52,936 bases of DNA, taken from sequence record OM313461; one strand, written 5' to 3'. The translations under genes and the position numbers were made by a program. The notes beneath the pieces are model-generated. The model worked only from the letters and a program-made list of their open reading frames with translations. It was not told the DNA's origin and did no database searches. Source of the stretch: Escherichia phage vB_EcoM_PiR. Positions 1 through 52,175 of this stretch are shown here, piece after piece. Every line of letters starts with the position of its first letter. Position 1 is the first letter of the stretch.

Positions 1-1449
1 ATGAATCTTGACTTTCACCTGCATGACAGACAAGGTGCCGCTCTGCGGTCTCAGGCAACTGAGATTCTGTACGGTGGTGCTGCTGGTGGTGGTAAGTCTC
101 ACCTTATGCGTGTAATGTCAATTATCATGTGTTGCATGATACCTGACTTGCAGATTTACCTTTTCCGCCGAAACTATAACGACCTTACGGCTAACCACAT
201 GGTTGGCCCCACAAGTTATCCTGCCTTGCTGGATGGTATGTGCAAAGCTGGCAAGTGCAAGATTAACTACTCGAGCAACACTATCAAATTCTGGAACGGT
301 GCAAACATCAAGCTCTGTCACCTCCAGTATGAAAAAGATATTTATACCTACCAGGGTGCGGAGATTCACGTTCTGCTGATGGATGAGCTTACTCACTTCA
401 CAGAAACGATGTACCGCTTCTTGCGTAACCGTGTCCGACTCGGTGCTCTCAAAGTCCCTGAGAACTTTTTCCGGCCTCTGCCACTCATCTTTTGTGGGTC
501 AAACCCCGGTGGTGTAGGTCACAACTGGGTTAAGCGTACTTTCGTAACTGCTGCTCCTCCGATGAAAATCGTTAAGCAGGAAAAACGCGAAGGTGGTATG
601 GCGCGTCAGTACATACCAGCTAAGATGACTGATAACCCTACGTTGATGGAAAACGACCCTGATTACGGCGACCGTCTTGAAGGTCTTGGTGACCCGGCGC
701 TTGTTGCCGCGATGAAAGAAGGCGACTGGGATATTGTTGCAGGTGGTGCACTCGACGATGTATGGTCAACCAAGTGTATTCTGCCTCGTATGCGTATTCC
801 AAAAGGCTGGACTATCGAACGTTCTCTTGACTGGGGTTCTACTCACCCGTTCTCTGTTGGTATCTGGGCTATTGCAAATGGCGCTTCGCTTACAGACGAC
901 GAAGGCAATGAGTACTTTATTCCACGTGGTTCCATTATACGTATAGCTGAATGGTATGGGTGCTCTGAAAAAGAAGCTAACAGGGGTATTAAACTTTCTG
1001 CTGCCGAAGTTGCTCAAGGTGTTCTCCGCTTACAGGAAAATCTGCAAGCTGGTGGCTGGATTCAAAGCAACGTTAATCCTGGTCCGGCTGATAGTCAAAT
1101 TTATGCGTGCAAGGAAAAAGACGTTGAGACTATCGCGAAGAAAATGGAAGACGAAGGCGTAACCTGGGTCAAGGCCGACAAGTCACAAGGTTCGAGAATA
1201 AATGGCTTAGAGCTATTCCGTCAGCTTCTGAAAAATGTTAAGATGGACGAAACGGAAAAGCCGGGCATTTATTTTATGGAAAACTGTCCAGCAGCCATAA
1301 ACACGTTGCCGGTTCTGCCGCGTGACAAGAACAACACGGAAGATGTCGACACGAACTCTGAAGACCACGTATACGATGATTGTCGTTACATGGTGTTGCG
1401 TGGCATCAACCGTTATACTACCAAGCTCAAAATAAATATGGGACGGTAA
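1..1449 (+). CDS. terminase large subunit
   Basis: ATG at position 1; Walker A GGAAGGGKS near N-terminus, Walker B-like LLMDE; directly followed by portal-sized ORF. Confidence 0.85.
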   Translation: MNLDFHLHDRQGAALRSQATEILYGGAAGGGKSHLMRVMSIIMCCMIPDLQIYLFRRNYNDLTANHMVGPTSYPALLDGMCKAGKCKINYSSNTIKFWNGANIKLCHLQYEKDIYTYQGAEIHVLLMDELTHFTETMYRFLRNRVRLGALKVPENFFRPLPLIFCGSNPGGVGHNWVKRTFVTAAPPMKIVKQEKREGGMARQYIPAKMTDNPTLMENDPDYGDRLEGLGDPALVAAMKEGDWDIVAGGALDDVWSTKCILPRMRIPKGWTIERSLDWGSTHPFSVGIWAIANGASLTDDEGNEYFIPRGSIIRIAEWYGCSEKEANRGIKLSAAEVAQGVLRLQENLQAGGWIQSNVNPGPADSQIYACKEKDVETIAKKMEDEGVTWVKADKSQGSRINGLELFRQLLKNVKMDETEKPGIYFMENCPAAINTLPVLPRDKNNTEDVDTNSEDHVYDDCRYMVLRGINRYTTKLKINMGR

Positions 1450-1450
1450 A

Positions 1451-3013
1451 ATGTCGATAACCCCAAGCAGCACGCCTAACGTCGGATACCAGCGTCCTGA
1501 GCTGACTAAGAACGCTGGTAAGTACCGAATGATTAAGGACTGCATCGAGGGTCAGGAAGCTGTTAAAGCACGCGGTGATTTTTATCTGCCTCGTCCTGAC
1601 CCTACGAACTGCACAGAAGAAAACCTGATGCGGTACAACTCGTACCTGCGTCGCGCTGTGTTCTATAACGTACTACAGCGAACTCTTTCGGGTATGACTG
1701 GTCTGGTATTCCAGCAGCAACCTGAAATGCTGATGCCTGATGATATGGAAGTGCTGAAAGTAAATATCGACGGTGCAGGTATCGGTGCTATTCAGCAAAT
1801 GCGTAAGTGCTTTAAATCAGTGCTTGCGTTTGGACGGGCAGGATTGCTGACTGACTTTCCAAAAGCACGTATCGGTGAGTTTGGTGAATCCATTGGTTTT
1901 ACACGTAAAGAACTAATGGATGGAGAAGTGCAGCCGACAGTAACGCTGTACATGCCATGGCAGATTATAAACTGGCGAGAAGAGTATCGCAACGGTAAAG
2001 TGATGCTCACTCAAGTTGTCATTTGCGAGCAAATACCGGGGGTTACTGATGGCTTTCAGCAAGACTACACACCCGTGTGGCGTCACCTTTACCTGGATGA
2101 AGAAGGCAATTGCAACCAGTCTTTGTGGGTCAATAAGGGCGACAAGAATGCGCAGAACGTCTCCGGTGGTGCGTTGTATGTCACGCAAGAAAATGTTGTC
2201 TTACGCGACTCCAACGGCTTACCGCTGAAGTTTATTCCGTTCCAGTTTATTGGTTCTGAAACAAACAGCGCTGAGATTGACCCTCCGCCGATGTACGACT
2301 TAGCTGTGCTTAATATCGCACACTACCGTAACTCTGCTGACTACGAAGAATCATGCTTCGTAACAGGTCAACCCACAGTATGGGCGTCTGGACTTACTGA
2401 AGCATGGGTTGAAGATGTTCTGAAGGGTGAACTGCGACTCGGTTCGTTTGGTGGTATTCCGCTGCCGGCTAACGCCGCTGTAGGTATTATTCAGACCAAC
2501 CCTAACACCCAGCCGTTTGAAGCGATGAAGCAAAAAGAAGCGCAGATGATTGCAATCGGTGCTCGACTGATTCGCGAGAATGGTAAGGTAGAACGACGCG
2601 AAGTTGAGATTAAGAATGAAGCTGCATCTGAGGCATCGCTTATCGTAACTGTTGCGCAGAACGTTGAAGCTGCTTATCGTAAAGCAATCGAATGGTGTGG
2701 CCTGTTCTACGGACACCCTAAAGAAGAAATTACGATTAACCTCAGCTACAACTTCATCTATAGCCAGTTGACTTATCAAGAACGTCAGCAGCTGGTTAAC
2801 GAATGGATTGCTGGTGCTATCACGTTTAGTGAGATGCGTAGCAATCTTAAACAGGCTGGCATTGCTAAGCTCACCGACGAAGAAGCTAAGAAGCTAATTG
2901 ATGAAGAGCTGGCTGAACGCGATGCGCGTGAGGTAGCAAAAGAAGCAGAAAAGAACGCTCAAGCAGCTAAGAACAGTGATGGGCAGGAAAATAATCCAGA
3001 AAAAACTGAATAA
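1451..3013 (+). CDS. portal protein (probable)
   Basis: 520-aa ORF starting 2 nt after terminase stop; position and size typical of portal; charged C-terminal tail. Confidence 0.65.
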   Translation: MSITPSSTPNVGYQRPELTKNAGKYRMIKDCIEGQEAVKARGDFYLPRPDPTNCTEENLMRYNSYLRRAVFYNVLQRTLSGMTGLVFQQQPEMLMPDDMEVLKVNIDGAGIGAIQQMRKCFKSVLAFGRAGLLTDFPKARIGEFGESIGFTRKELMDGEVQPTVTLYMPWQIINWREEYRNGKVMLTQVVICEQIPGVTDGFQQDYTPVWRHLYLDEEGNCNQSLWVNKGDKNAQNVSGGALYVTQENVVLRDSNGLPLKFIPFQFIGSETNSAEIDPPPMYDLAVLNIAHYRNSADYEESCFVTGQPTVWASGLTEAWVEDVLKGELRLGSFGGIPLPANAAVGIIQTNPNTQPFEAMKQKEAQMIAIGARLIRENGKVERREVEIKNEAASEASLIVTVAQNVEAAYRKAIEWCGLFYGHPKEEITINLSYNFIYSQLTYQERQQLVNEWIAGAITFSEMRSNLKQAGIAKLTDEEAKKLIDEELAERDAREVAKEAEKNAQAAKNSDGQENNPEKTE

Positions 3014-3190: not shown

Positions 3191-3904
3191 ATGGCACTTA
3201 AAACAGTTGTAACTGACCTTACCGAAGTTGATGAAGGCTTCCGTGGCCTGTATATCAAAGACGAAGCATCTGGCGCATTCCGTTTGGACGTTGAACCAGA
3301 CGAAAAAACGCTGAAAGAATTAGAAGACCTGCGCAAAGAAAAACAGCGTATGGAACAGCACACCAAAAAGCTTCTCGAAGAAAAGAAAAAAGAAGCTGAA
3401 CGTGCTCGCCTGGCTGAAGAAGAACGCGCACGTCGTGAGCGTGATGTTGAATCTCTTGAGCGCTCTATCAAAGAGAAACATCAGGCTGAACTGGAACAGT
3501 ATACTAATCGTCAGGCACAGCTGCAAGCTCAGCTGGAAGCGCAAATGGTTGATAACCTGGCGCTGAACCTGGCTAACCAACTCTCTGACACCCCGGCACT
3601 TATTATGCCACACATCAAGGCCCGACTGCGCGCTCAGGAAATTGATGGTAAGTGGCGTACTACTGTCGTGGATGTTATGGGTAACCCGACTGCTACAACG
3701 CCAGATGAGCTAGTGGAACATATGCGCGCTGATAAGCAGTTTGCACCTCTTGTGCGTGGAACCAAGGCTGGCGGTGGCGGTGCCAACGGCGGCGGAGCTA
3801 ATCCTGGTGGGAACGGCGGTGGCGAACAGCACACTTTCGGAGGCGGGGACGACCGCATAGCACGTGCTCGTGCTAAAATCCAAAACACACAATGGGGCAA
3901 ATAA
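3191..3904 (+). CDS. scaffolding protein (probable)
   Basis: 237-aa highly charged E/K/R-rich coiled-coil-like protein with Gly-rich C-terminus, immediately upstream of capsid gene. Confidence 0.55.
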   Translation: MALKTVVTDLTEVDEGFRGLYIKDEASGAFRLDVEPDEKTLKELEDLRKEKQRMEQHTKKLLEEKKKEAERARLAEEERARRERDVESLERSIKEKHQAELEQYTNRQAQLQAQLEAQMVDNLALNLANQLSDTPALIMPHIKARLRAQEIDGKWRTTVVDVMGNPTATTPDELVEHMRADKQFAPLVRGTKAGGGGANGGGANPGGNGGGEQHTFGGGDDRIARARAKIQNTQWGK

Positions 3905-3907
3905 TTT

Positions 3908-4885
3908 ATGTCACTGTATATTTTTAACGAACAAGTACGTTCTACCGCCACCGAACTGGTCGACCAGGACGTACAGAAGTTTAACGAAGCTTCTGCTGGT
4001 ACCCTTATCCTGGGTAACCAGTACGTAATCGGTGATTACGTTGAGCAGGCAATGTGGCAGCTGGTTGACGGTATCGCTACTCGTCGTAACGCTTACGCAG
4101 GCACCAACAAAGTTGATGCGCAGACTCTGGGCCAGATTCTGGACCGTTCTGTTAAGATCGACGGCCGTGTTGGTCCTCTGAACATTACCGGTACTATGAT
4201 GCGTCGCATCGGTGCAGGTGATACTGAACCAGCAGCTGTTGTTGCTGCACAGGCTTCTGCTGCGATGTTCCAGGACTACCTGAACACCACTGCTGCATGT
4301 CTGGTAGCTGCTATCGGCGCAAACGCTGATGTTGTTCTGGACGTAACTGCAGGTTCCGGTGCTGCTGCAAACATCACTATGCAGAACCTGAACAAAGTAA
4401 ACGCTAAGATGGGTGACCGTTCTCAGCAGATTCGTGCATACATCATGCATTCTACTGCGTTCCACTCTCTCATCGACCAGGCCATCAACAACACGGAACA
4501 CCTGTTCCAGATTGGTGACCTGAACGTATACAAAGACTTCCTGGGTCGTCGTTATGTCGTTTCCGACATCCCGGCTCTGGTTGATGGCGCCGGTGCTTCC
4601 GCTAAGTACCGCACTCTGGGTCTAACCCCGTCTGCTGCAATCGTTCAGGTCGGCGGCCTGTACGATATGGTTACCTCCGAGCAAACCGGTGGTGAAAACA
4701 TCCTGCGTCAGATGCAGGGTGAATACGACTTCAACGTGTCGCTGAAAGGCTACAGCTGGGTCGGTCACAAAGCTGGTCAGTCTCCGACTGATGAAGACCT
4801 GGCTGCTCAAGCGTCCTGGTCTAAAGTTGCGACTTCCAACAAAGACACCGCTGGTGTTATGCTGCTGGCTAAGTCTGCAATCTAA
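3908..4885 (+). CDS. major capsid protein (probable)
   Basis: 325-aa ORF after scaffold gene; followed by strong intrinsic terminator and promoter. Confidence 0.6.
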   Translation: MSLYIFNEQVRSTATELVDQDVQKFNEASAGTLILGNQYVIGDYVEQAMWQLVDGIATRRNAYAGTNKVDAQTLGQILDRSVKIDGRVGPLNITGTMMRRIGAGDTEPAAVVAAQASAAMFQDYLNTTAACLVAAIGANADVVLDVTAGSGAAANITMQNLNKVNAKMGDRSQQIRAYIMHSTAFHSLIDQAINNTEHLFQIGDLNVYKDFLGRRYVVSDIPALVDGAGASAKYRTLGLTPSAAIVQVGGLYDMVTSEQTGGENILRQMQGEYDFNVSLKGYSWVGHKAGQSPTDEDLAAQASWSKVATSNKDTAGVMLLAKSAI

Positions 4886-4907
4886 CCCACAAACGGGACT
4901 AACAAAA

Positions 4908-4933
4908 GGCGAGCTGACGAGCTCGCCTTTTTT
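4908..4933 (+). terminator. rho-independent terminator
   Basis: perfect 8-bp stem GGCGAGCT/AGCTCGCC with 4-nt loop followed by TTTTTT. Confidence 0.8.
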
Positions 4934-4934
4934 A

Positions 4935-4963
4935 TTTACACGTATAAAGTTCTGGTATATAAT
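4935..4963 (+). promoter_or_regulatory. sigma70-like promoter TTTACA-N17-TATAAT
   Basis: -35 TTTACA 4935-4940, 17-bp spacer, -10 TATAAT 4958-4963; GGAGG SD and ATG at 4990 downstream. Confidence 0.65.
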
Positions 4964-4989
4964 CGGACTAAACTTGCTGGAGGCTTTAT

Positions 4990-5490
4990 ATGGCATACAC
5001 ACTTGTTGTGGAAGACGGTTCAATCGTTCCGGGTGCTAACTCGTATGTTAGCGCTGCAGAAGTAGATGAGTTTATCACTAACGAAGGTCTTCTCATTCAG
5101 CCAGGAACTGACCCGTACTACCAGGCTGCCAAAGCAGCTATTCGACTTGATAACCAGTTTAACTGGCTAGGCCGTAAGGTCAGCAAAACACAGAACATGG
5201 CTTGGCCCCGTACTGGCCTCGGTGCATGCAATGTTGACATCGCGGAGTCTGTAATTCCGCGAGAAGTTAAGCTGGCACAGCTTTATATGATGGCCAGTGT
5301 ATTGAGCTATGACGGCGAAGAAGGTGTGCGTAGCGACCAGGCTTTGCGCCGTAAGAAAGTTGGTAACCTGGAGATTGAATACTTCGACTCCAAATCAGGC
5401 GTTACCGGCGCAACTGACCTTTGGACGTCAGACGTCAAGGCCATGCTCAAGCACCTTGTGGGTGCATCCCTGAGAACGCGGAGAGTATAA
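4990..5490 (+). CDS. virion structural protein (head completion/connector region), function unknown
   Basis: ATG with GGAGG SD; stop overlaps next start (TAATG). Confidence 0.6.
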   Translation: MAYTLVVEDGSIVPGANSYVSAAEVDEFITNEGLLIQPGTDPYYQAAKAAIRLDNQFNWLGRKVSKTQNMAWPRTGLGACNVDIAESVIPREVKLAQLYMMASVLSYDGEEGVRSDQALRRKKVGNLEIEYFDSKSGVTGATDLWTSDVKAMLKHLVGASLRTRRV

Positions 5491-47511: not shown

Positions 47512-48048
47512 TTACTCTTCAGTTTCTTGGGTTTCAGGTTTTTGACCAGTTACTGACTTGCCATCAGTCACTTTACCAGATTTTACATCATTCCGGTAGT
47601 ATGACATATATGACTGGATAACTCTTTTGGCTTTGATGTCATCCGCCTCCATCCCACAGGCTTTCATGGCATCAACTAGGGCCAGTTTGGAATCTTCTTT
47701 ATCCATCAGGTTGTAATCTTTGAACACCAGATAACAAGTATCTTTTGTTGATGGACCAGATGACTTCCGGGCCCCACCATTGGAAGATCTTGATGCCACA
47801 ACTTTGACCTCTTCAACTTCCAGTTGGTTCAGTTCATCAAACAATGCCTTGACCAACACTTCTTTGGAGTCCTTGACACTTACAGTACTTTCATCATTAA
47901 GGGACTTAATCATCTTAATGATCTGGTTGTTGGCAAAGTACTGAAGACTATCCATCTGCACTACAATAGTCCCAAGACTTTCAGTAGTCAGACCAGATTT
48001 TACAGACTCAACAGAAAAGGCGGAAGTCAGGTAAACATAGTTAGTCAT
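47512..48048 (-). CDS. hypothetical early protein
   Basis: start re-assigned to ATG 48048 with GAGGA SD. Confidence 0.55.
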   Translation of the reverse strand: MTNYVYLTSAFSVESVKSGLTTESLGTIVVQMDSLQYFANNQIIKMIKSLNDESTVSVKDSKEVLVKALFDELNQLEVEEVKVVASRSSNGGARKSSGPSTKDTCYLVFKDYNLMDKEDSKLALVDAMKACGMEADDIKAKRVIQSYMSYYRNDVKSGKVTDGKSVTGQKPETQETEE

Positions 48049-48143
48049 TGATGTATCCTCATTGATAGAATTTTTGATAAGTGTCAATCCTTGACAAGTA
48101 AGTCCAATCATGAGGACTTTTACCAAGTCCCCATTGTTGGAAA

Positions 48144-48317
48144 TTACTTCAACTTATCCAGAATTGATTGGAGTAACTTGACCCTCACTTCCTGGTCTTT
48201 GACATCCCTTCCACTCTCCCTGTCATATTCCAACAGGTCACTTTCCATAAATAAAGTAGTGTCCAATTGGTCAACCAATAATTCCAGTTCTTCTTGGGAC
48301 AATTCTAAAACTTTCAT
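48144..48317 (-). CDS. small early protein, paralog family member 3
   Basis: ATG 48317 after CAGGAG; N-terminus MKVLELSQEELELLVDQLD. Confidence 0.55.
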   Translation of the reverse strand: MKVLELSQEELELLVDQLDTTLFMESDLLEYDRESGRDVKDQEVRVKLLQSILDKLK

Positions 48318-48321
48318 CTTA

Positions 48322-48468
48322 TTACTCCTGATATTTAATAACTTGGGATTGGATAAAGTCAACACAATCTTCCACATCCATTGACTCAAAGTCTGGAACT
48401 GGACCATTGTTTATATTGACACACCAAAGCCCTTCATTGGTATCATACCAAAGTGTGTAGTTGTCCAT
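48322..48468 (-). CDS. small early protein (first gene of AT-rich block)
   Basis: ATG 48468 after AGAGGTG; track start 48525 is GTG. Confidence 0.5.
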   Translation of the reverse strand: MDNYTLWYDTNEGLWCVNINNGPVPDFESMDVEDCVDFIQSQVIKYQE

Positions 48469-48834
48469 CTTAATAGTCACCTCTTGTACTAGTTTCCAGT
48501 TGTGACTACTGTTACCAATAGTCACTGGTTGAAACTATTACTAGTGTTACTATCAACAAGAAACATGTTACCAGATTGTTAAAGAGCAAAAGGTACCATT
48601 GACATCTACCAGATGTACCTGTTGACTGGTTAAGTACTACCTACCCAAATTAAACCATACTAATACCCTCCAGACCAGTTGACTGGTCACTTGGTCATCA
48701 CATTCAATAAATATATAATAGTCCAATCCCTCTTGATTGTACACCTTATATTTGTAAGTTTATGCAAGTTTTTAGAAATGATAATCACTTGCGATTGAGA
48801 GTGGTTCTCGTATGCTATTGATATAGTTTCGCAT

Positions 48835-49098
48835 GTAATTACTCAACTCAAAATGGTCGGCAGGGGTTATAATCACATAGGGGTGCCACTTAAAGGAGCC
48901 GGCGAAATTATTTATAAAAATATAATTTCAATCTGAAGTATAGACGCTTTGTGTTATAACGGCCGAAGTAGTTCATACGGTAATTGTATCAATCACAATA
49001 GTTACCAGCGTAATCATTTCAATCGAAATAGGTGCGGCGGGGGTAATTTCGCAAGGGTGCTACCCACCAGGAGTCAGCGGAATTTTTTTATTTTTTGG
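48835..49098. repeat. duplicated ~85-bp non-coding element (two full copies plus a partial copy)
   Basis: copy 1 48835-48915 and copy 2 49010-49098 share GTAAT...CAA..AAAT.GGT.CGGC.GGGG...AGGGTGC.AC...AGGAG.C.GCG.AATT-T-run; partial copy at 48979-49006. Confidence 0.5.
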
Positions 49099-49307
49099 TA
49101 TTTTTGCCTTATCAGGACCAATCATCATCAGATTGATACAATAGGAGCTAACCTTTTGCCTAACACAATAATAAGTGAAGCCCCTCTAAAATTTTTTTTT
49201 ATATTTTTCGGAAATTGTGTAGACACTCACTAAAAAGTGGTGTACTTTCTCTCCTCCACGCGCTATCATTAATGTGAATCATCAAACGGCCTCACGGTCT
49301 CCTACTT

Positions 49308-49805
49308 ATGGGTAACATTATGAAAATTGTTCAATTAGAGCCATATCCGCCTCAATTGGCTATCGTTTGCAGCGAAAAAGAGCACCAGGAGCTCCAAAAG
49401 CTGATGGATTTGCCTGATTTTGGCAACTGGAATGACCGGGAAACGCGTAATGCGTCTACTTTTACGTTCACTCGCGTTAACTATCCGTACCTGTTAATCG
49501 TCGTCGAACTGTACCACCCGGACGACCTGAAGTACAACACCATTTCCCACGAAGGCATTCACGTAATGTCGTCGCTGATGAACTATGTAGGGCTTAAATA
49601 CGACCCAGAAAACGATGAATGGTACGCATATCAGCACGATTTCATCGTAAATGCCATTTGTAAGGCCCATGATGAGTACCTGGAGCGCAAAAAAGCGCCA
49701 AAACATAAGCCAAAAATCGAAACAGGCAATCATCCTGTGATACTGCCACAAGACGTTATGAACTCGCTTTTGACTGACACTACTGGGGACTTTTTAGGTG
49801 ATTGA
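49308..49805 (+). CDS. HExxH-motif protein (putative metallopeptidase-like)
   Basis: 165 aa containing SHEGIHV. Confidence 0.45.
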   Translation: MGNIMKIVQLEPYPPQLAIVCSEKEHQELQKLMDLPDFGNWNDRETRNASTFTFTRVNYPYLLIVVELYHPDDLKYNTISHEGIHVMSSLMNYVGLKYDPENDEWYAYQHDFIVNAICKAHDEYLERKKAPKHKPKIETGNHPVILPQDVMNSLLTDTTGDFLGD

Positions 49806-50307
49806 AATACTCCGTAAGTATTTTCGCTATGAGCCAGACACAGGCTTATTGTACAGAATACGACAGGCTAAAACAGGTAAACGAGTCGATATGAGCCAGC
49901 CTGTAGGCACGGAACATAGCGGTTATCTGTTTTGCAGTGTACCAGAAGGCATTCGTACAAAGCCTGTGCACGTAATCTGCTATGCTTTACAAACTGGCGA
50001 ACTACCTGAAGTAGTTGACCATAAAGATGGTAACGGGCTTAACAACAAATGGTACAACCTTCGTAACGGTACTCAAACGCAGAACCGGTATAACTCAAAA
50101 GTCAAATCAAGTAACACAACAGGCGTAAAAGGCTTGTTTGAGTACGCACCAAAAGGTCGTAAACCTCTTTGGAAAGCCAGCATTAAAGTAGATGGAGTCA
50201 ATCATCAGAAGTATTTCCCTTATACTGATAACGGTAGGCTGGAAGCTATTGAGTGGCTTGACGAACAAAGACATCAACATGGCGAATTCGCCAACAAAGG
50301 AAATTAA
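49798..50307 (+). CDS. HNH homing endonuclease with AP2-like DNA-binding domain
   Basis: VDHKDGNGLNNKWYNLR...TQTQNRYN HNH motif; C-terminal AP2-like region; GTG start with weak RBS. Confidence 0.7.
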   Translation: MIEILRKYFRYEPDTGLLYRIRQAKTGKRVDMSQPVGTEHSGYLFCSVPEGIRTKPVHVICYALQTGELPEVVDHKDGNGLNNKWYNLRNGTQTQNRYNSKVKSSNTTGVKGLFEYAPKGRKPLWKASIKVDGVNHQKYFPYTDNGRLEAIEWLDEQRHQHGEFANKGN

Positions 50308-50308
50308 T

Positions 50309-50983
50309 ATGATAAACCTAATCTTTGCAATGGGCCAAAATGGGGAATTCGGGTTGTCCCCGGAGTTTATGAAGCATCAGGTGGACTCGTGTAAGACTAT
50401 GGAAGAGGTCCGTGCGCTTCCTAAGTCTGGTTTACCATGGAAGTGTCCGTCAGATATGCTCTTTTTCAGGACTATGACTAATTCAATTGCGTCAGAACCA
50501 GGCTATAATGCGTATCAGCAACTACGGGGACAGTTCCCAAGTGACCAGTTGCGAAACATGATAGCTGATGTAACGGTAAAAATGGTTGGGCATAGCGTAT
50601 TGTTAGCCGGTCGTAAAACGTTTATGACTATGAGTCTGCCTATGTCAGCCCACCGAATACTGCTGCCGGTATCTCGTCAGATTATGGCTTCAGAAGGCTA
50701 CAACAATATAGGTGAGTTGGCAGCAGCACTTGAAGACCGTGGTTCAGATGTTTGGATTGTTGGCGGTGCACAGTTAATACTTGCGGCTCTTGAAGAGCAT
50801 GCCAAAGGTACACTCCGTGTTGACAACATGTTTATCAGCACAATCAAAGAAGCAGGTCCAAGTGATATATTAATGGACCGTAGCAAATTAATGATGTACA
50901 TTGATAGCGACTTCACTTATAATGATGAATATGTTGATAACAAATCTGTGCTGATACAGCGTTACCGGAGTGTACAGCAATGA
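50309..50983 (+). CDS. dihydrofolate reductase (with internal insertion)
   Basis: start ATG 50309 (AAGGA SD); DHFR-like motifs MINLIFAMGQNGEFG, LPW, VGHSVLLAGRKTF, VWIVGGAQL. Confidence 0.65.
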   Translation: MINLIFAMGQNGEFGLSPEFMKHQVDSCKTMEEVRALPKSGLPWKCPSDMLFFRTMTNSIASEPGYNAYQQLRGQFPSDQLRNMIADVTVKMVGHSVLLAGRKTFMTMSLPMSAHRILLPVSRQIMASEGYNNIGELAAALEDRGSDVWIVGGAQLILAALEEHAKGTLRVDNMFISTIKEAGPSDILMDRSKLMMYIDSDFTYNDEYVDNKSVLIQRYRSVQQ

Positions 50984-51486
50984 ATATCATAGTTGAGGGA
51001 CCTGACAATGCTCGTAAATCTACACTTATTAAGTTCCTTGAACCTCATCTTGGCCGCAGCATTATTCATAATACTGTTGACAAAGATGCCGAATCGGTCA
51101 TGGCTAAACAGGCCAAAGAAAACGCGCTCGAAGGCAATAGTATTTACGACCGTAGCGCTGTTATATCTGAGTATATCTATTGCATGGTTCTTCAACGTAC
51201 GCCTGTCATCAATATTAATGTATCACATGTAGCAGATATGTGTGACAACGCCATCGTTATCTTTTGTATGCCGCCTATTGAAAAGGTACTGGCGACTACA
51301 AAAGAAGAGATGCCTGGTGTTGTGGAAAATCTTGAGGCGTTATACAACCAGTATGACAACCTCATTGACGAACTGGTTATGATGGGCAAGCAGTTCTTTA
51401 TTTACGACTGGACTGCTGAAGAAAATGGCCCAGAAGCAGTTCTCGAATACATCAACGAACGTATTAATAAGGAGTGGAACAAATGA
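50980..51486 (+). CDS. P-loop-like nucleotide kinase with degenerate Walker A (possible dNMP kinase)
   Basis: IVEGPDNARKSTL resembles thymidylate-kinase P-loop but second Gly replaced by Arg; ATGA overlap with DHFR stop. Confidence 0.35.
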   Translation: MNIIVEGPDNARKSTLIKFLEPHLGRSIIHNTVDKDAESVMAKQAKENALEGNSIYDRSAVISEYIYCMVLQRTPVININVSHVADMCDNAIVIFCMPPIEKVLATTKEEMPGVVENLEALYNQYDNLIDELVMMGKQFFIYDWTAEENGPEAVLEYINERINKEWNK

Positions 51487-52175
51487 GCCCAGTATACAAT
51501 ACCTCAGTCACGCTGTCAGCAACCGTAGGGGACGTCAACAAGACTGTTACTGTGGGTTCAACTAACCCGAACCTGTCAGGCGAAGACCTGCTACGCCTGG
51601 CCAAACGTGCTCTTGAAGATAACGAAGTGACTGGTACTGAAGGCGTTAACATTGAAATTAACGTCGAAGGGTGTCCACACAGCATCAGCATTGCGACTTC
51701 TGGCGATGAAATTGAAAAGTTCAACGACGAGCTGGAATATCGTACCGGTGAGATGTTCAGCAGTGCGCTAAACTGGTACTTGTGCAAGGCTTCAAACTAC
51801 GCTGGCGCTCCTATGTCAGACCGTATGTTAGCTGATATGTCTGCACGTGAAATTGCTAAAGGCTGGGCGCATGTACAGATGCTGCAGGAGCATATCTGCA
51901 AGCTGGAAAGCTGCAATAAAGACGCGTCTGAGCTTATTACTGCCTATAAGCGACAGATTAACGACCTGCAGCAACTGATGGGCAAACGCGCTGAAGAATA
52001 TGAGGCTGAGATTCGTAGTCTTAACGGTACGGCTGTTGCTAACAACCGTGCTTTCAGCGAAGAGCGTAAAGCGCTTATTGCCCAGCGTGACGCTGAAAAA
52101 CGTCGTGCAGACGACCTAGCAAACCGTCTTAATTTTATCCGTAAACACATGGAACACATGGATGGAGTAATCTGA
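51483..52175 (+). CDS. hypothetical protein with C-terminal coiled coil
   Basis: ATG 51483 with AAGGAG SD; track start 51474 is GTG. Confidence 0.5.
   Translation: MSPVYNTSVTLSATVGDVNKTVTVGSTNPNLSGEDLLRLAKRALEDNEVTGTEGVNIEINVEGCPHSISIATSGDEIEKFNDELEYRTGEMFSSALNWYLCKASNYAGAPMSDRMLADMSAREIAKGWAHVQMLQEHICKLESCNKDASELITAYKRQINDLQQLMGKRAEEYEAEIRSLNGTAVANNRAFSEERKALIAQRDAEKRRADDLANRLNFIRKHMEHMDGVI

Follow-up and report, generated by a model that had tools for sequence, protein, structure and literature searches.

A probable free-standing homing endonuclease gene of the HNH(HNN)-AP2 family between an HExxH-protein gene and DHFR in a Rosemountvirus nucleotide-metabolism operon

In the window (the whole 52,936-nucleotide stretch of DNA analysed here, from Escherichia phage vB_EcoM_PiR, record OM313461), the junction between the genes for an HExxH protein and dihydrofolate reductase (DHFR), within a Rosemountvirus operon for nucleotide metabolism, is occupied by what is very probably a free-standing gene for a homing endonuclease of the phage HNH(HNN)-AP2 family. 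A homing mechanism is proposed for it below. The original prediction of a homing endonuclease is supported by the domains of the protein, by the distribution of the gene and by a sign of recent transfer, with cleavage predicted from the sequence. The gene is an ordinary selfish element of a well-known kind, already labelled as a homing endonuclease in GenBank. The coordinates of the gene, its domains and its flanks are given in Table 1.

Table 1. Features of the endonuclease locus in window coordinates.
Feature	Position	Strand	Details and evidence
Upstream flank: conserved 165-aa protein	49308..49805	+	HEGIH at aa 81-85, PHROG 1365; ORF list, PHROG
Initiation context taken over from DHFR	49785..49805	+	Weak SD GGGGA, GTG start, overlapping upstream TGA
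Probable free-standing HNH-AP2 homing endonuclease gene	49798..50307	+	169 aa, GTG start, TAA stop; ORF list, Pfam HNH_3, PHROG 99
511-bp insert, missing at empty junctions	49798..50308	+	Junction alignments of 16 genomes
N-terminal region, aa 1-55	49798..49962	+	Conserved YxPxTGxLxW-type beta-hairpin; homologue alignment, PHROG 99, I-HmuI alignment, pLDDT
HNH_3 (HNN-type beta-beta-alpha-metal) core, aa 56-97	49963..50088	+	D74, H75, N87, N96; Pfam
Divergent AP2-like DNA-binding domain (predicted), ~aa 108-165	50119..50292	+	Strands 113-116, 124-131, 134-141; helix 144-164; HGEFA end
New DHFR ribosome-binding site in insert 3' end	50297..50311	+	AAGGAAA 50297-50303, TAA 50305-50307, DHFR ATG 50309-50311
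Downstream flank: dihydrofolate reductase gene	50309..50983	+	Pfam DHFR_1 E 3.9e-8; PHROG 316 E 8e-27
Carrier-linked substitutions, DHFR codons 2-4	50312..50320	+	Column-by-column association test, junction listing

The ORF at 49798-50307 is a real gene. The GTG that it uses is its first possible start codon in the ORF list, and this GTG (49798-49800) overlaps the TGA stop (49803-49805) of the upstream gene. Both the GTG start and the poor ribosome-binding site of the original prediction held; the latter is a fair description because GGGGA (49785-49789), 8 nt upstream, is the sole Shine-Dalgarno-like element before the GTG. The start is supported by the conserved N-terminal region, in which the PHROG 99 match begins at aa 3. 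At the other end, where the stop had been said to abut the DHFR Shine-Dalgarno and start, the TAA indeed lies one base 5' of the DHFR ATG, and the AAGGAAA of DHFR falls within the endonuclease coding sequence. The JEP7 and PiR records in GenBank label the gene ‘homing endonuclease’ from an internal start at 49891, which gives a 138-aa form; in the triss record, the annotation covers all 510 nt of the ORF. The GC content of the gene (42.5% vs 45.8% for the genome, 10th percentile) represents a mild AT shift that is not diagnostic.

The predicted HNH motif was confirmed by a Pfam HNH_3 match over aa 56-97 (E 1.2e-9, 38.1 bits vs a gathering score of 24.8 bits) and by a match to PHROG 99, ‘HNH endonuclease’, over aa 3-168 (E 1.3e-37), and is strictly of the HNN variant (D74-H75 ... 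N87 ... N96), of which D74, H75 and N87 are invariant across the 18 aligned homologues. The VVDHKDGN...NLR...N core matches I-HmuI (PDB 1U3E) residue for residue, with D74, H75, N87 and N96 all aligned. The family profile matches the same structure over aa 20-109 (E 1e-9), and 1U3E is also the top Foldseek PDB match of the AlphaFold model, with a probability of 0.97 and a modest E of 4.7e-3. In that model (whole-model pLDDT 82.6), strands 72-75 and 88-91 lead into helix 93-98 to form the core, and aa 1-20 have pLDDT values of 88-89. The N-terminal aa 1-55 align with the N-terminal DNA-contacting region of I-HmuI, the alignment beginning at aa 14. The paper describing 1U3E reportedly assigns to I-HmuI an Asp-His general-base pair, a structural Asn and a metal-ligand Asn. 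Judged from its sequence, the protein is a member of the HNH_3 / I-HmuI-like His-Me finger nucleases with predicted activity.

The C-terminus, which had been considered clearly AP2-like, required more than the single sequence: Pfam AP2 (PF00847) gave no match to the window protein alone even at E<=1, whereas family-level comparisons and the predicted fold argue for an AP2-like domain. Pfam AP2 is matched by 14 of the 18 aligned homologues (best E 7.3e-12), and the same 14 carry both HNH_3 and AP2. Plant AP2/ERF structures (WRI1, TEM1, ERF096 and AtERF1) are matched by the family profile over aa 112-165 with E values of 1.8e-12 to 4e-6, the C-terminal 65 aa of the window protein score 30.5 bits (E 1.6e-11) against a leave-out profile of the C-termini of the other homologues, and the AlphaFold model displays the AP2 topology of three strands and a helix with a pLDDT of 85-97. 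The combined HNH and AP2 architecture is confirmed at the family level, and the C-terminal domain is supported, from these profiles and the modelled fold, as a divergent AP2-like domain. Its subtype, FPYT..G...A..WL.E.R..HGEFA, is common to a gene of Salmonella phage vB_SEnST11_KE24. Foldseek matches to AP2 and integrase-arm domains were weak (E 0.07-1.2) and were dropped as stand-alone evidence, only I-HmuI being convincing in the PDB.

The proposed insertion between an HExxH-protein gene and DHFR was verified in the flanking genes, which encode the HEGIH and DHFR_1 proteins, and in the precise 511-bp insert between them. The ends of the insert are ambiguous by ~5 nt owing to GTGAT/(A/G)TGAT microhomology at 49798-49802 and 50309-50313. 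In PiR, an empty junction would have TTTTTAG, or ...GGGGACTTTTTAG, joined directly to ATGATAAACC; the empty-junction sequence is GTGATTAATATAATC in the yarpen/BP63 type and ATGATAAACCTAATC in the IntR type. In genomes without the insert, the DHFR GTG occupies the exact position of the endonuclease GTG, and the junction listing contains no AAGGAAA-type DHFR ribosome-binding element in these genomes. The last codons of the endonuclease gene give DHFR a new Shine-Dalgarno sequence, so that both neighbouring genes remain intact, and both are full length beside the insert. The gene reads in the same direction as the rest of the operon. An Rfam search around the gene revealed no intron or other relevant RNA, with one chance snoRNA match (E 0.76), and a group I intron or other RNA setting was rejected on this basis. 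A promoter and terminator scan of 48400-50700 yielded sites no more frequent than in shuffled sequence and showed no promoter inside the gene itself. A repeat search of 49600-50500 returned short matches only; a 16-nt pair, CAA(C/A)ATGG(C/G)GAATTCG, at 50275 and 50336 was judged to be due to chance.

Related phages were compared for presence or absence of the ORF at this junction, as had been proposed together with the original prediction. Besides the window record, only JEP7 and triss carry the gene among ~60 Rosemountvirus-like phage records in GenBank, and one de novo SRA-derived contig has it at the same junction. The junction is empty in ~40 close relatives whose flanks are 90-99% identical, and the gene is thus not universally present. 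No other phage record exceeded 60% identity in tblastn. Among 1.84 billion representatives, this lineage makes up one 50%-identity cluster, with an identity of at most ~46% to any other 50% cluster, and no close relative of the protein was found in IMG/VR and JGI metagenomes, in which matches reach 31-39% identity only. The exact junction haplotype of the window has 0 matches in IMG/VR, and the exact 169-aa protein is not on record in public assemblies.

This distribution bears on the idea that the protein is not a selfish element but a housekeeping HNH endonuclease, such as a terminase-associated packaging enzyme or a nuclease degrading host DNA. Some phage HNH proteins are generally known to assist the terminase, and the gene does lie within an operon of nucleotide-metabolism genes. 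However, it is missing from ~40 viable close relatives, the terminase gene is not adjacent (window 1-1449 according to the JEP7 annotation), and the protein is of the homing class that combines I-HmuI/HNH_3 with AP2, as opposed to the short HNH proteins associated with terminases, making a housekeeping role highly improbable.

A recent mobile insertion had also been suggested, and the sporadic distribution and one pair of carriers bear this out. Across the gene, JEP7 and triss do not differ at any position for 598 bp (49758-50355), with flanks differing by 3-4%; this is the longest identical run in 6.8 kb of their alignment at 94.6% identity, and points to a recent transfer of the gene. The pair of JEP7 and the SRA contig lacks this sign, since the gene (97.8%) and its flanks (96-97.6%) are about equally diverged, which fits plain vertical descent inside a carrier subclade. 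Between the window and JEP7, the gene is 99.8% identical (510/511) and DHFR 89.8%. This discordance could be read as homing ‘caught in the act’ but was set aside as untrustworthy because the window record resembles a consensus built in the frame of JEP7.

A rival reading is that the gene is a decaying or domesticated remnant, which arrived by homing in the past, no longer cleaves, and persists passively or as an AP2-based DNA-binding or regulatory protein. In its favour, the divergence of the AP2 domain is unusual and leaves it without a Pfam match, its start codon and ribosome-binding site are weak, degeneration after fixation is known for HNN-AP2 genes of Xanthomonas phages (PMC2248197), and AP2 domains have been co-opted as regulators (bioRxiv 10.64898/2026.02.23.707548). 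Nevertheless, the ORF is full length in 4/4 carrier genomes with D74, H75, N87 and N96 intact, the gene is rare in the genus and not fixed, and the 598-bp identity of the otherwise diverged JEP7 and triss suggests recent movement, so that a remnant appears unlikely.

For the favoured reading, an active homing endonuclease, the following cycle is proposed. The protein would act as a monomeric I-HmuI-like beta-beta-alpha-metal nuclease, with H75 as the putative general base and D74 and N96 as putative metal ligands; positioning on DNA would fall to its N-terminal beta region and to the AP2-like domain at its C-terminus. In a co-infecting phage without the gene, the DNA would be nicked or cut at or near the conserved junction, and recombinational repair off the carrier genome would copy in the 511-bp gene together with a few tens of bases of flank. 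Carriers may be protected because the insert splits the site, through linked substitutions in DHFR codons 2-4, or by both.

These codons read ATA AAC CTA in carriers versus ATT AAT (A/C)T(A/T) in 11 genomes without the gene. The changes are candidates, from sequence comparison, for target-site immunity changes or for co-converted donor markers, and could be hitch-hiking markers rather than immunity changes. We tentatively suggest, with considerable doubt, that the locus may hold a complete cycle of gain, immunity and loss of a homing endonuclease gene within a genus of lytic phages, in which DHFR codons 2-4 (ATT AAT ATA -> ATA AAC CTA) would be the immunity determinant and IntR-type genomes the footprints of precise loss. 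In such a cycle, the synonymous and conservative DHFR changes would pinpoint the recognition site of the enzyme, and the loss in IntR-type genomes would occur through recombination between the GTGAT and ATGAT repeats. In this reading, the insert would also have been drawn into the expression of the operon, with the upstream stop codon and the DHFR ribosome-binding site both coming from it.

Whether vB_EcoM_PiR itself carries the gene is a separate matter. It is quite possible, if short of probable, that the gene is real in JEP7-like phages and that its presence in OM313461 was inherited from the JEP7 reference, in which case PiR may lack the gene, as its sibling IntR does. The window matches JEP7 in length and differs from it by 1549 substitutions without a single indel. 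At 52/52 JEP7/IntR indels it has the JEP7 state, even with IntR-state SNPs 2-30 nt away, and over 47930-48809, a segment in which no alignment of the two references is possible, it is 100% JEP7. The gene is identical to that of JEP7 at 510 of 511 positions, and IntR displays the same pattern against swi3, with zero indels in 50 kb and 100% swi3 sequence over 3351-3971. PiR and IntR came from one soil sample, with swi3 and JEP7 named as closest references and Genome Detective and Geneious cited (PMC9343928), which is consistent with such an origin. On the other hand, the window differs from JEP7 at 49891 (T>A, inside the insert) and at 50309 (G>A, the first base after it), differences that pure reference fill-in would not create. 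IntR moreover has the carrier-type DHFR 5' end, ATGATAAACCTA, otherwise found in 4/4 carriers and 0/11 non-carriers, so that the gene is, or once was, present in this lineage. In neither case does this change what kind of gene it is. From the comparison of these genomes, the PiR record resembles a SNP-only consensus that keeps the coordinates of JEP7, and the presence of the gene in the PiR phage is therefore not independently established; as PiR and IntR look like such consensuses on two reference frames, presence or absence of the insertion is unreadable from either.

The biological value of the locus is modest, being that of a clean and well-delimited free-standing HNH-AP2 example with an insertion site defined to the base. 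With the site known to the base, empty alleles from more than 40 genomes and a short list of candidate immunity changes, experiments on homing or on the cleavage site could be designed with little effort. In biocontrol, for which Rosemountvirus phages are under development, genes of this kind can drive marker exchange among cocktail phages. Of more practical value is the data-quality warning on the vB_EcoM_PiR and IntR records.

Among known systems, I-HmuI, the HNH nicking homing endonuclease of Bacillus phage SPO1, is the best solved-structure match by profile and fold. The likeness comprises the VVDHKDGN...NLR...N core, the equivalents of D74, H75 and N96, and the N-terminal beta region, which is kept. 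Unlike the I-HmuI gene, which resides inside a group I intron, the gene in the window is free-standing between genes. The C-terminal DNA-binding part of I-HmuI is a helix-turn-helix and not an AP2 domain, and the profile likeness to I-HmuI ends at ~aa 109, with AP2/ERF structures taking over at aa 112-165. Free-standing seg and mob genes of T4-like phages are intergenic between nucleotide-metabolism genes (e.g. mobE between nrdA and nrdB), sporadic and accompanied by short co-converted flanks. The lifestyle is alike, namely an intergenic insert with sporadic presence among close relatives, but no close sequence relationship to the present gene is detectable; Seg enzymes are of the GIY-YIG type and Mob enzymes are HNH proteins without AP2.

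The HNH-AP2 homing endonuclease family has been described previously (PMC2248197, PMC10448857, both citing Magnani et al. 2004), and its members are reported to lie in clusters close to essential genes (PMC10448857). HNH(HNN)-AP2 genes of phages, cyanobacteria and protists, such as the ‘HNN-AP2’ genes of Xp10, OP1 and Xop411, the ‘IPA-HNH’ of ICP1 and those of T5-like phages, share the same architecture at ~160-175 aa, from which the present lineage differs in its divergent AP2 subtype that falls below the Pfam AP2 threshold. T5-like phages (Shivani, ‘contains HNH and Ap2/ERF’) and the Seuratvirus Skure contain relatives at 37-39% identity; these bear a homing endonuclease annotation and adjoin replication or nucleotide-metabolism genes. 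The HNH-AP2 gene of KE24 (XCH40767.1) belongs to the same genus and operon and has the same architecture and AP2 subtype, but shares 37% identity over its full length and lies at the next junction downstream, where DHFR is followed by the thymidylate kinase gene; it stems from a separate invasion by a different lineage.

The ORF of the original prediction was recovered in the ORF list with identical coordinates, strand and GTG start. In the GenBank records of PiR and of Escherichia phage JEP7 (MT764207.1), the start is placed at an internal codon, which removes 31 conserved N-terminal residues of the endonuclease; the record of Salmonella phage triss has the full ORF annotated, from the GTG equivalent to 49798. 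As these residues are conserved in the family, can be aligned to the homing endonuclease I-HmuI and are confidently modelled by AlphaFold2, the GTG start is supported. The downstream gene encodes a dihydrofolate reductase (DHFR; Pfam DHFR_1, E 3.9e-8; PHROG 316, E 8e-27) and is followed by a thymidylate-kinase-like gene (PHROG 761). The endonuclease ORF ends in AAC AAA GGA AAT TAA, which contains the ribosome-binding site of DHFR, so that its stop abuts the DHFR Shine-Dalgarno (SD) element and start as originally described. A 16-nt near-repeat between the endonuclease 3' end and the DHFR 5' end is probably due to chance.

Features of the endonuclease gene and its borders (window coordinates)
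Feature	Coordinates	Strand	Description
Endonuclease ORF	49798..50307	+	169 aa; no other possible start lies between the preceding in-frame stop and this GTG
ORF start codon	49798-49800		GTG; overlap with the upstream gene's stop
Stop of upstream gene	49803-49805		TGA; 165-aa product with HEGIH at aa 81-85
SD-like element	49785-49789		GGGGA, the sole one 5' of the GTG; spacing 8 nt
GenBank start in JEP7 and PiR	49891		TTG in JEP7, ATG in the window; gives 138 aa
DHFR ribosome-binding site	50297-50303		AAGGAAA
DHFR start codon	50309		ATG, one base past the endonuclease stop
Near-repeat, endonuclease 3' end	50275-50290		CAACATGGCGAATTCG; codes QHGEFA
Near-repeat, DHFR 5' end	50336-50351		CAAAATGGGGAATTCG; codes QNGEFG

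Homology searches bear out the assignment as an HNH nuclease. The protein matches Pfam HNH_3 (aa 56-97, 38.1 bits with a cut-off of 24.8) and PHROG 99 'HNH endonuclease' (aa 3-168, E 1.3e-37), and a family profile, made by aligning 18 homologues from a 5.8-billion-protein collection and searched against PDB sequences, matched I-HmuI of SPO1 (1U3E) over aa 20-109 (E 1e-9). I-HmuI was also top-ranked by Foldseek for the AlphaFold2 model (E 4.7e-3, probability 0.97). In the single-sequence alignment, VVDHKDGNGLNNKWYNLRNGTQTQN of the window protein pairs with VVDHKDGNKDNNLSTNLRWVTQKIN of I-HmuI, which puts D74, H75, N87 and N96 all in place, and the motif is, judged by this alignment, the 'HNN' variant of HNH. 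Beside this intact active site, it appears improbable that the gene is an inactive or domesticated remnant.

The predicted AP2-like C-terminal domain stood at the level of the family but not of the single sequence. Pfam AP2 left the window protein alone unmatched even at E<=1, but matched 14 of the 18 aligned homologues. The family profile recovered the plant AP2/ERF domains of WRI1, TEM1, ERF096 and AtERF1 (aa 112-165, E 1.8e-12 to 4e-6), and the C-terminal 65 residues of the window protein scored 30.5 bits (E 1.6e-11) with a profile made only from the C-termini of the other homologues. The AlphaFold2 model (mean pLDDT 82.6) has strands at 113-116, 124-131 and 134-141, then a long helix at 144-164, a predicted fold with AP2 topology; its Foldseek matches to apicomplexan AP2 and integrase arm-binding domains were weak.

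Alignment of 16 genomes defined a base-precise insert of 511 bp between the intact genes of the HExxH protein and DHFR, where the original prediction had placed it, with GTGAT-type microhomology at each end. Empty alleles read ...GGGGACTTTTTAG directly followed by GTGATTAATATAATCTTCGCAATGGGCC, and carriers read ...TTTTTAG, then the insert from GTGATTGAAATA through the gene to AAAGGAAATTAAT, then (G/A)TGATAAACCTAATCTT. The GTG that starts DHFR in empty alleles has the same position as the endonuclease GTG in carriers, so the insert has taken over the DHFR initiation context with its coupling to the upstream stop, and it provides DHFR with a new SD. No intron or other RNA family was found around the gene.

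A megablast search with 48900-51500 gave 60 Rosemountvirus-like phage records, of which only JEP7 and triss covered the query at 100%. About 40 others covered 80-81% in two pieces, indicating that the ORF is absent from these, and tblastn detected copies of >60% identity in no phage record besides JEP7 and triss. At the same junction, a copy with 97% identity lies on a Logan contig assembled de novo from SRR19500609, another copy is on a 950-nt Logan contig, and no close relative was found in the IMG/VR and JGI metagenomes. The original observation is confirmed and its interpretation as a homing endonuclease supported; that the product is a housekeeping nuclease is hardly credible beside such a distribution. 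Some matching records carry odd labels: KY608966.1 (Escherichia phage CF2, 'UNVERIFIED') is filed as a Tequatrovirus (T4-like), which seems wrong because its 53-kb genome is ~92% identical to the window, and several others bear implausible host names, e.g. Listeria.

JEP7 and triss are 94.6% identical across 6.8 kb, and the longest identical run in this comparison (598 bp, 49758-50355) takes in the gene with 40 nt of flank on one side and 47 nt on the other, with an SNP density of 3-4% just outside. Between JEP7 and the SRR19500609 contig, the gene (97.8%) and its flanks (96-97.6%) diverge similarly, which fits older vertical descent. Within the flanks, 11 non-carriers are told apart from every carrier at positions of DHFR codons 2-4 only, ATA AAC CTA in carriers and ATT AAT (A/C)T(A/T) in non-carriers; these differences may be markers co-converted from the donor or changes that shield carriers from self-cleavage. 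The sole exception is IntR (OM313460), the sibling of PiR, which lacks the gene yet has carrier-type codons. Its junction (3880-3920 of the junction piece; window 49790/50309-50325) has the carrier-type DHFR 5' end ATGATAAACCTAATC without the insert, leaving the upstream gene without a stop, so that it would read on into DHFR for ~27 codons. Either a precise loss between GTGAT/ATGAT repeats left this footprint, or it is an assembly artefact.

The manner in which the two sibling records were built calls for a warning. A note in Data in Brief, which reports PiR (OM313461) together with IntR, gives PiR as 97.07% identical to JEP7, and our own comparison gave 97.1%, with equal length (52,936 bp), 1549 substitutions and 0 indels. 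At 1978 JEP7/IntR SNP positions, the window has the IntR state at 1388 and the JEP7 state at 579, and at 52 of 52 JEP7/IntR indels it has the JEP7 state, despite IntR-state SNPs a few bases off; 47930-48809 is 100% JEP7 where JEP7 and the other lineage are unalignable. IntR matches swi3 (MT768059) in length (52,782) and in gene coordinates, with 2051 substitutions and 0 indels in 50 kb (1-50000), and the corresponding 621 bp (IntR 3351-3971) are 100% swi3. This pattern is most simply explained if each record is a SNP-only consensus sequence built on a different reference frame, in which case finding the gene in PiR but not in IntR does not amount to two independent observations. The contrast with JEP7 between the gene (99.8% identical) and DHFR (89.8%) was for this reason discounted as evidence of recent homing. 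With the JEP7 state kept so uniformly at the indels, it is quite possible, if on balance doubtful, that the gene's presence in this particular genome is a record artefact; against this, two differences from JEP7 specific to the window, 49891 T>A inside the insert and 50309 G>A on its border, suggest that genuine reads covered the insert, and the carrier-type DHFR codons of IntR point in the same direction.

The operon appears to have been invaded at least twice. In Salmonella phage KE24, the site of the window's insert is empty, and a different HNH-AP2 gene (4569-5084 of its piece, 37% identical) occupies the next junction downstream, that of DHFR with the thymidylate kinase gene, which points to a second HNH-AP2 invasion independent of the first. 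At the HExxH-protein/DHFR junction, more distant IMG/VR relatives carry an unrelated ORF of 80-89 aa (2735-3004 and 2759-3001 of two sequences); the junction is a hot spot for small inserts in general. Elsewhere, at 47930-48809, JEP7 and the window are 55-84% identical to triss, IntR and KE24 and have different small minus-strand ORFs, apparently a replaced early-gene cassette. The gene past the kinase gene encodes a protein with a length-variable stretch: at 51697-51714, a deletion common to JEP7 and the window sets them apart from the four other aligned genomes (27 nt vs IntR, 9 nt vs triss and KE24).

Taken as a homing endonuclease gene, it would be read as part of an operon transcript that starts in the divergent intergenic region 5' of 49308, and would be weakly translated from its GTG through coupling to the gene before it. 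The putative enzyme would grip the conserved empty junction with the beta region at its N-terminus and with the AP2-like domain and, by analogy with I-HmuI, most probably nick one strand near the insertion point; repair off a co-infecting carrier genome would then copy in the gene and, with it, a few tens of flanking bases. Carriers would be immune through a site that is split, altered, or both.

The analysis adds the exact insertion anatomy and candidate immunity positions to a gene already labelled 'homing endonuclease' in GenBank. An exhaustive HMMER search gave 30,655 cluster representatives at E<=1e-3, of which only its own cluster reached E<=1e-30, the next best relatives being ~35-46% identical. 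Homing endonucleases with the HNH/HNN-AP2 architecture have long been described as a class (PMC2248197; PMC10448857, both citing Magnani et al. 2004), named 'IPA-HNH' in PMC10448857, and the gene is a new representative of this well-known kind. Its nearest relatives beyond the genus are already annotated as homing endonucleases, such as those of Seuratvirus Skure, where the gene adjoins dUTPase, and of T5-like phage Shivani, whose annotation reads 'contains HNH and Ap2/ERF'.
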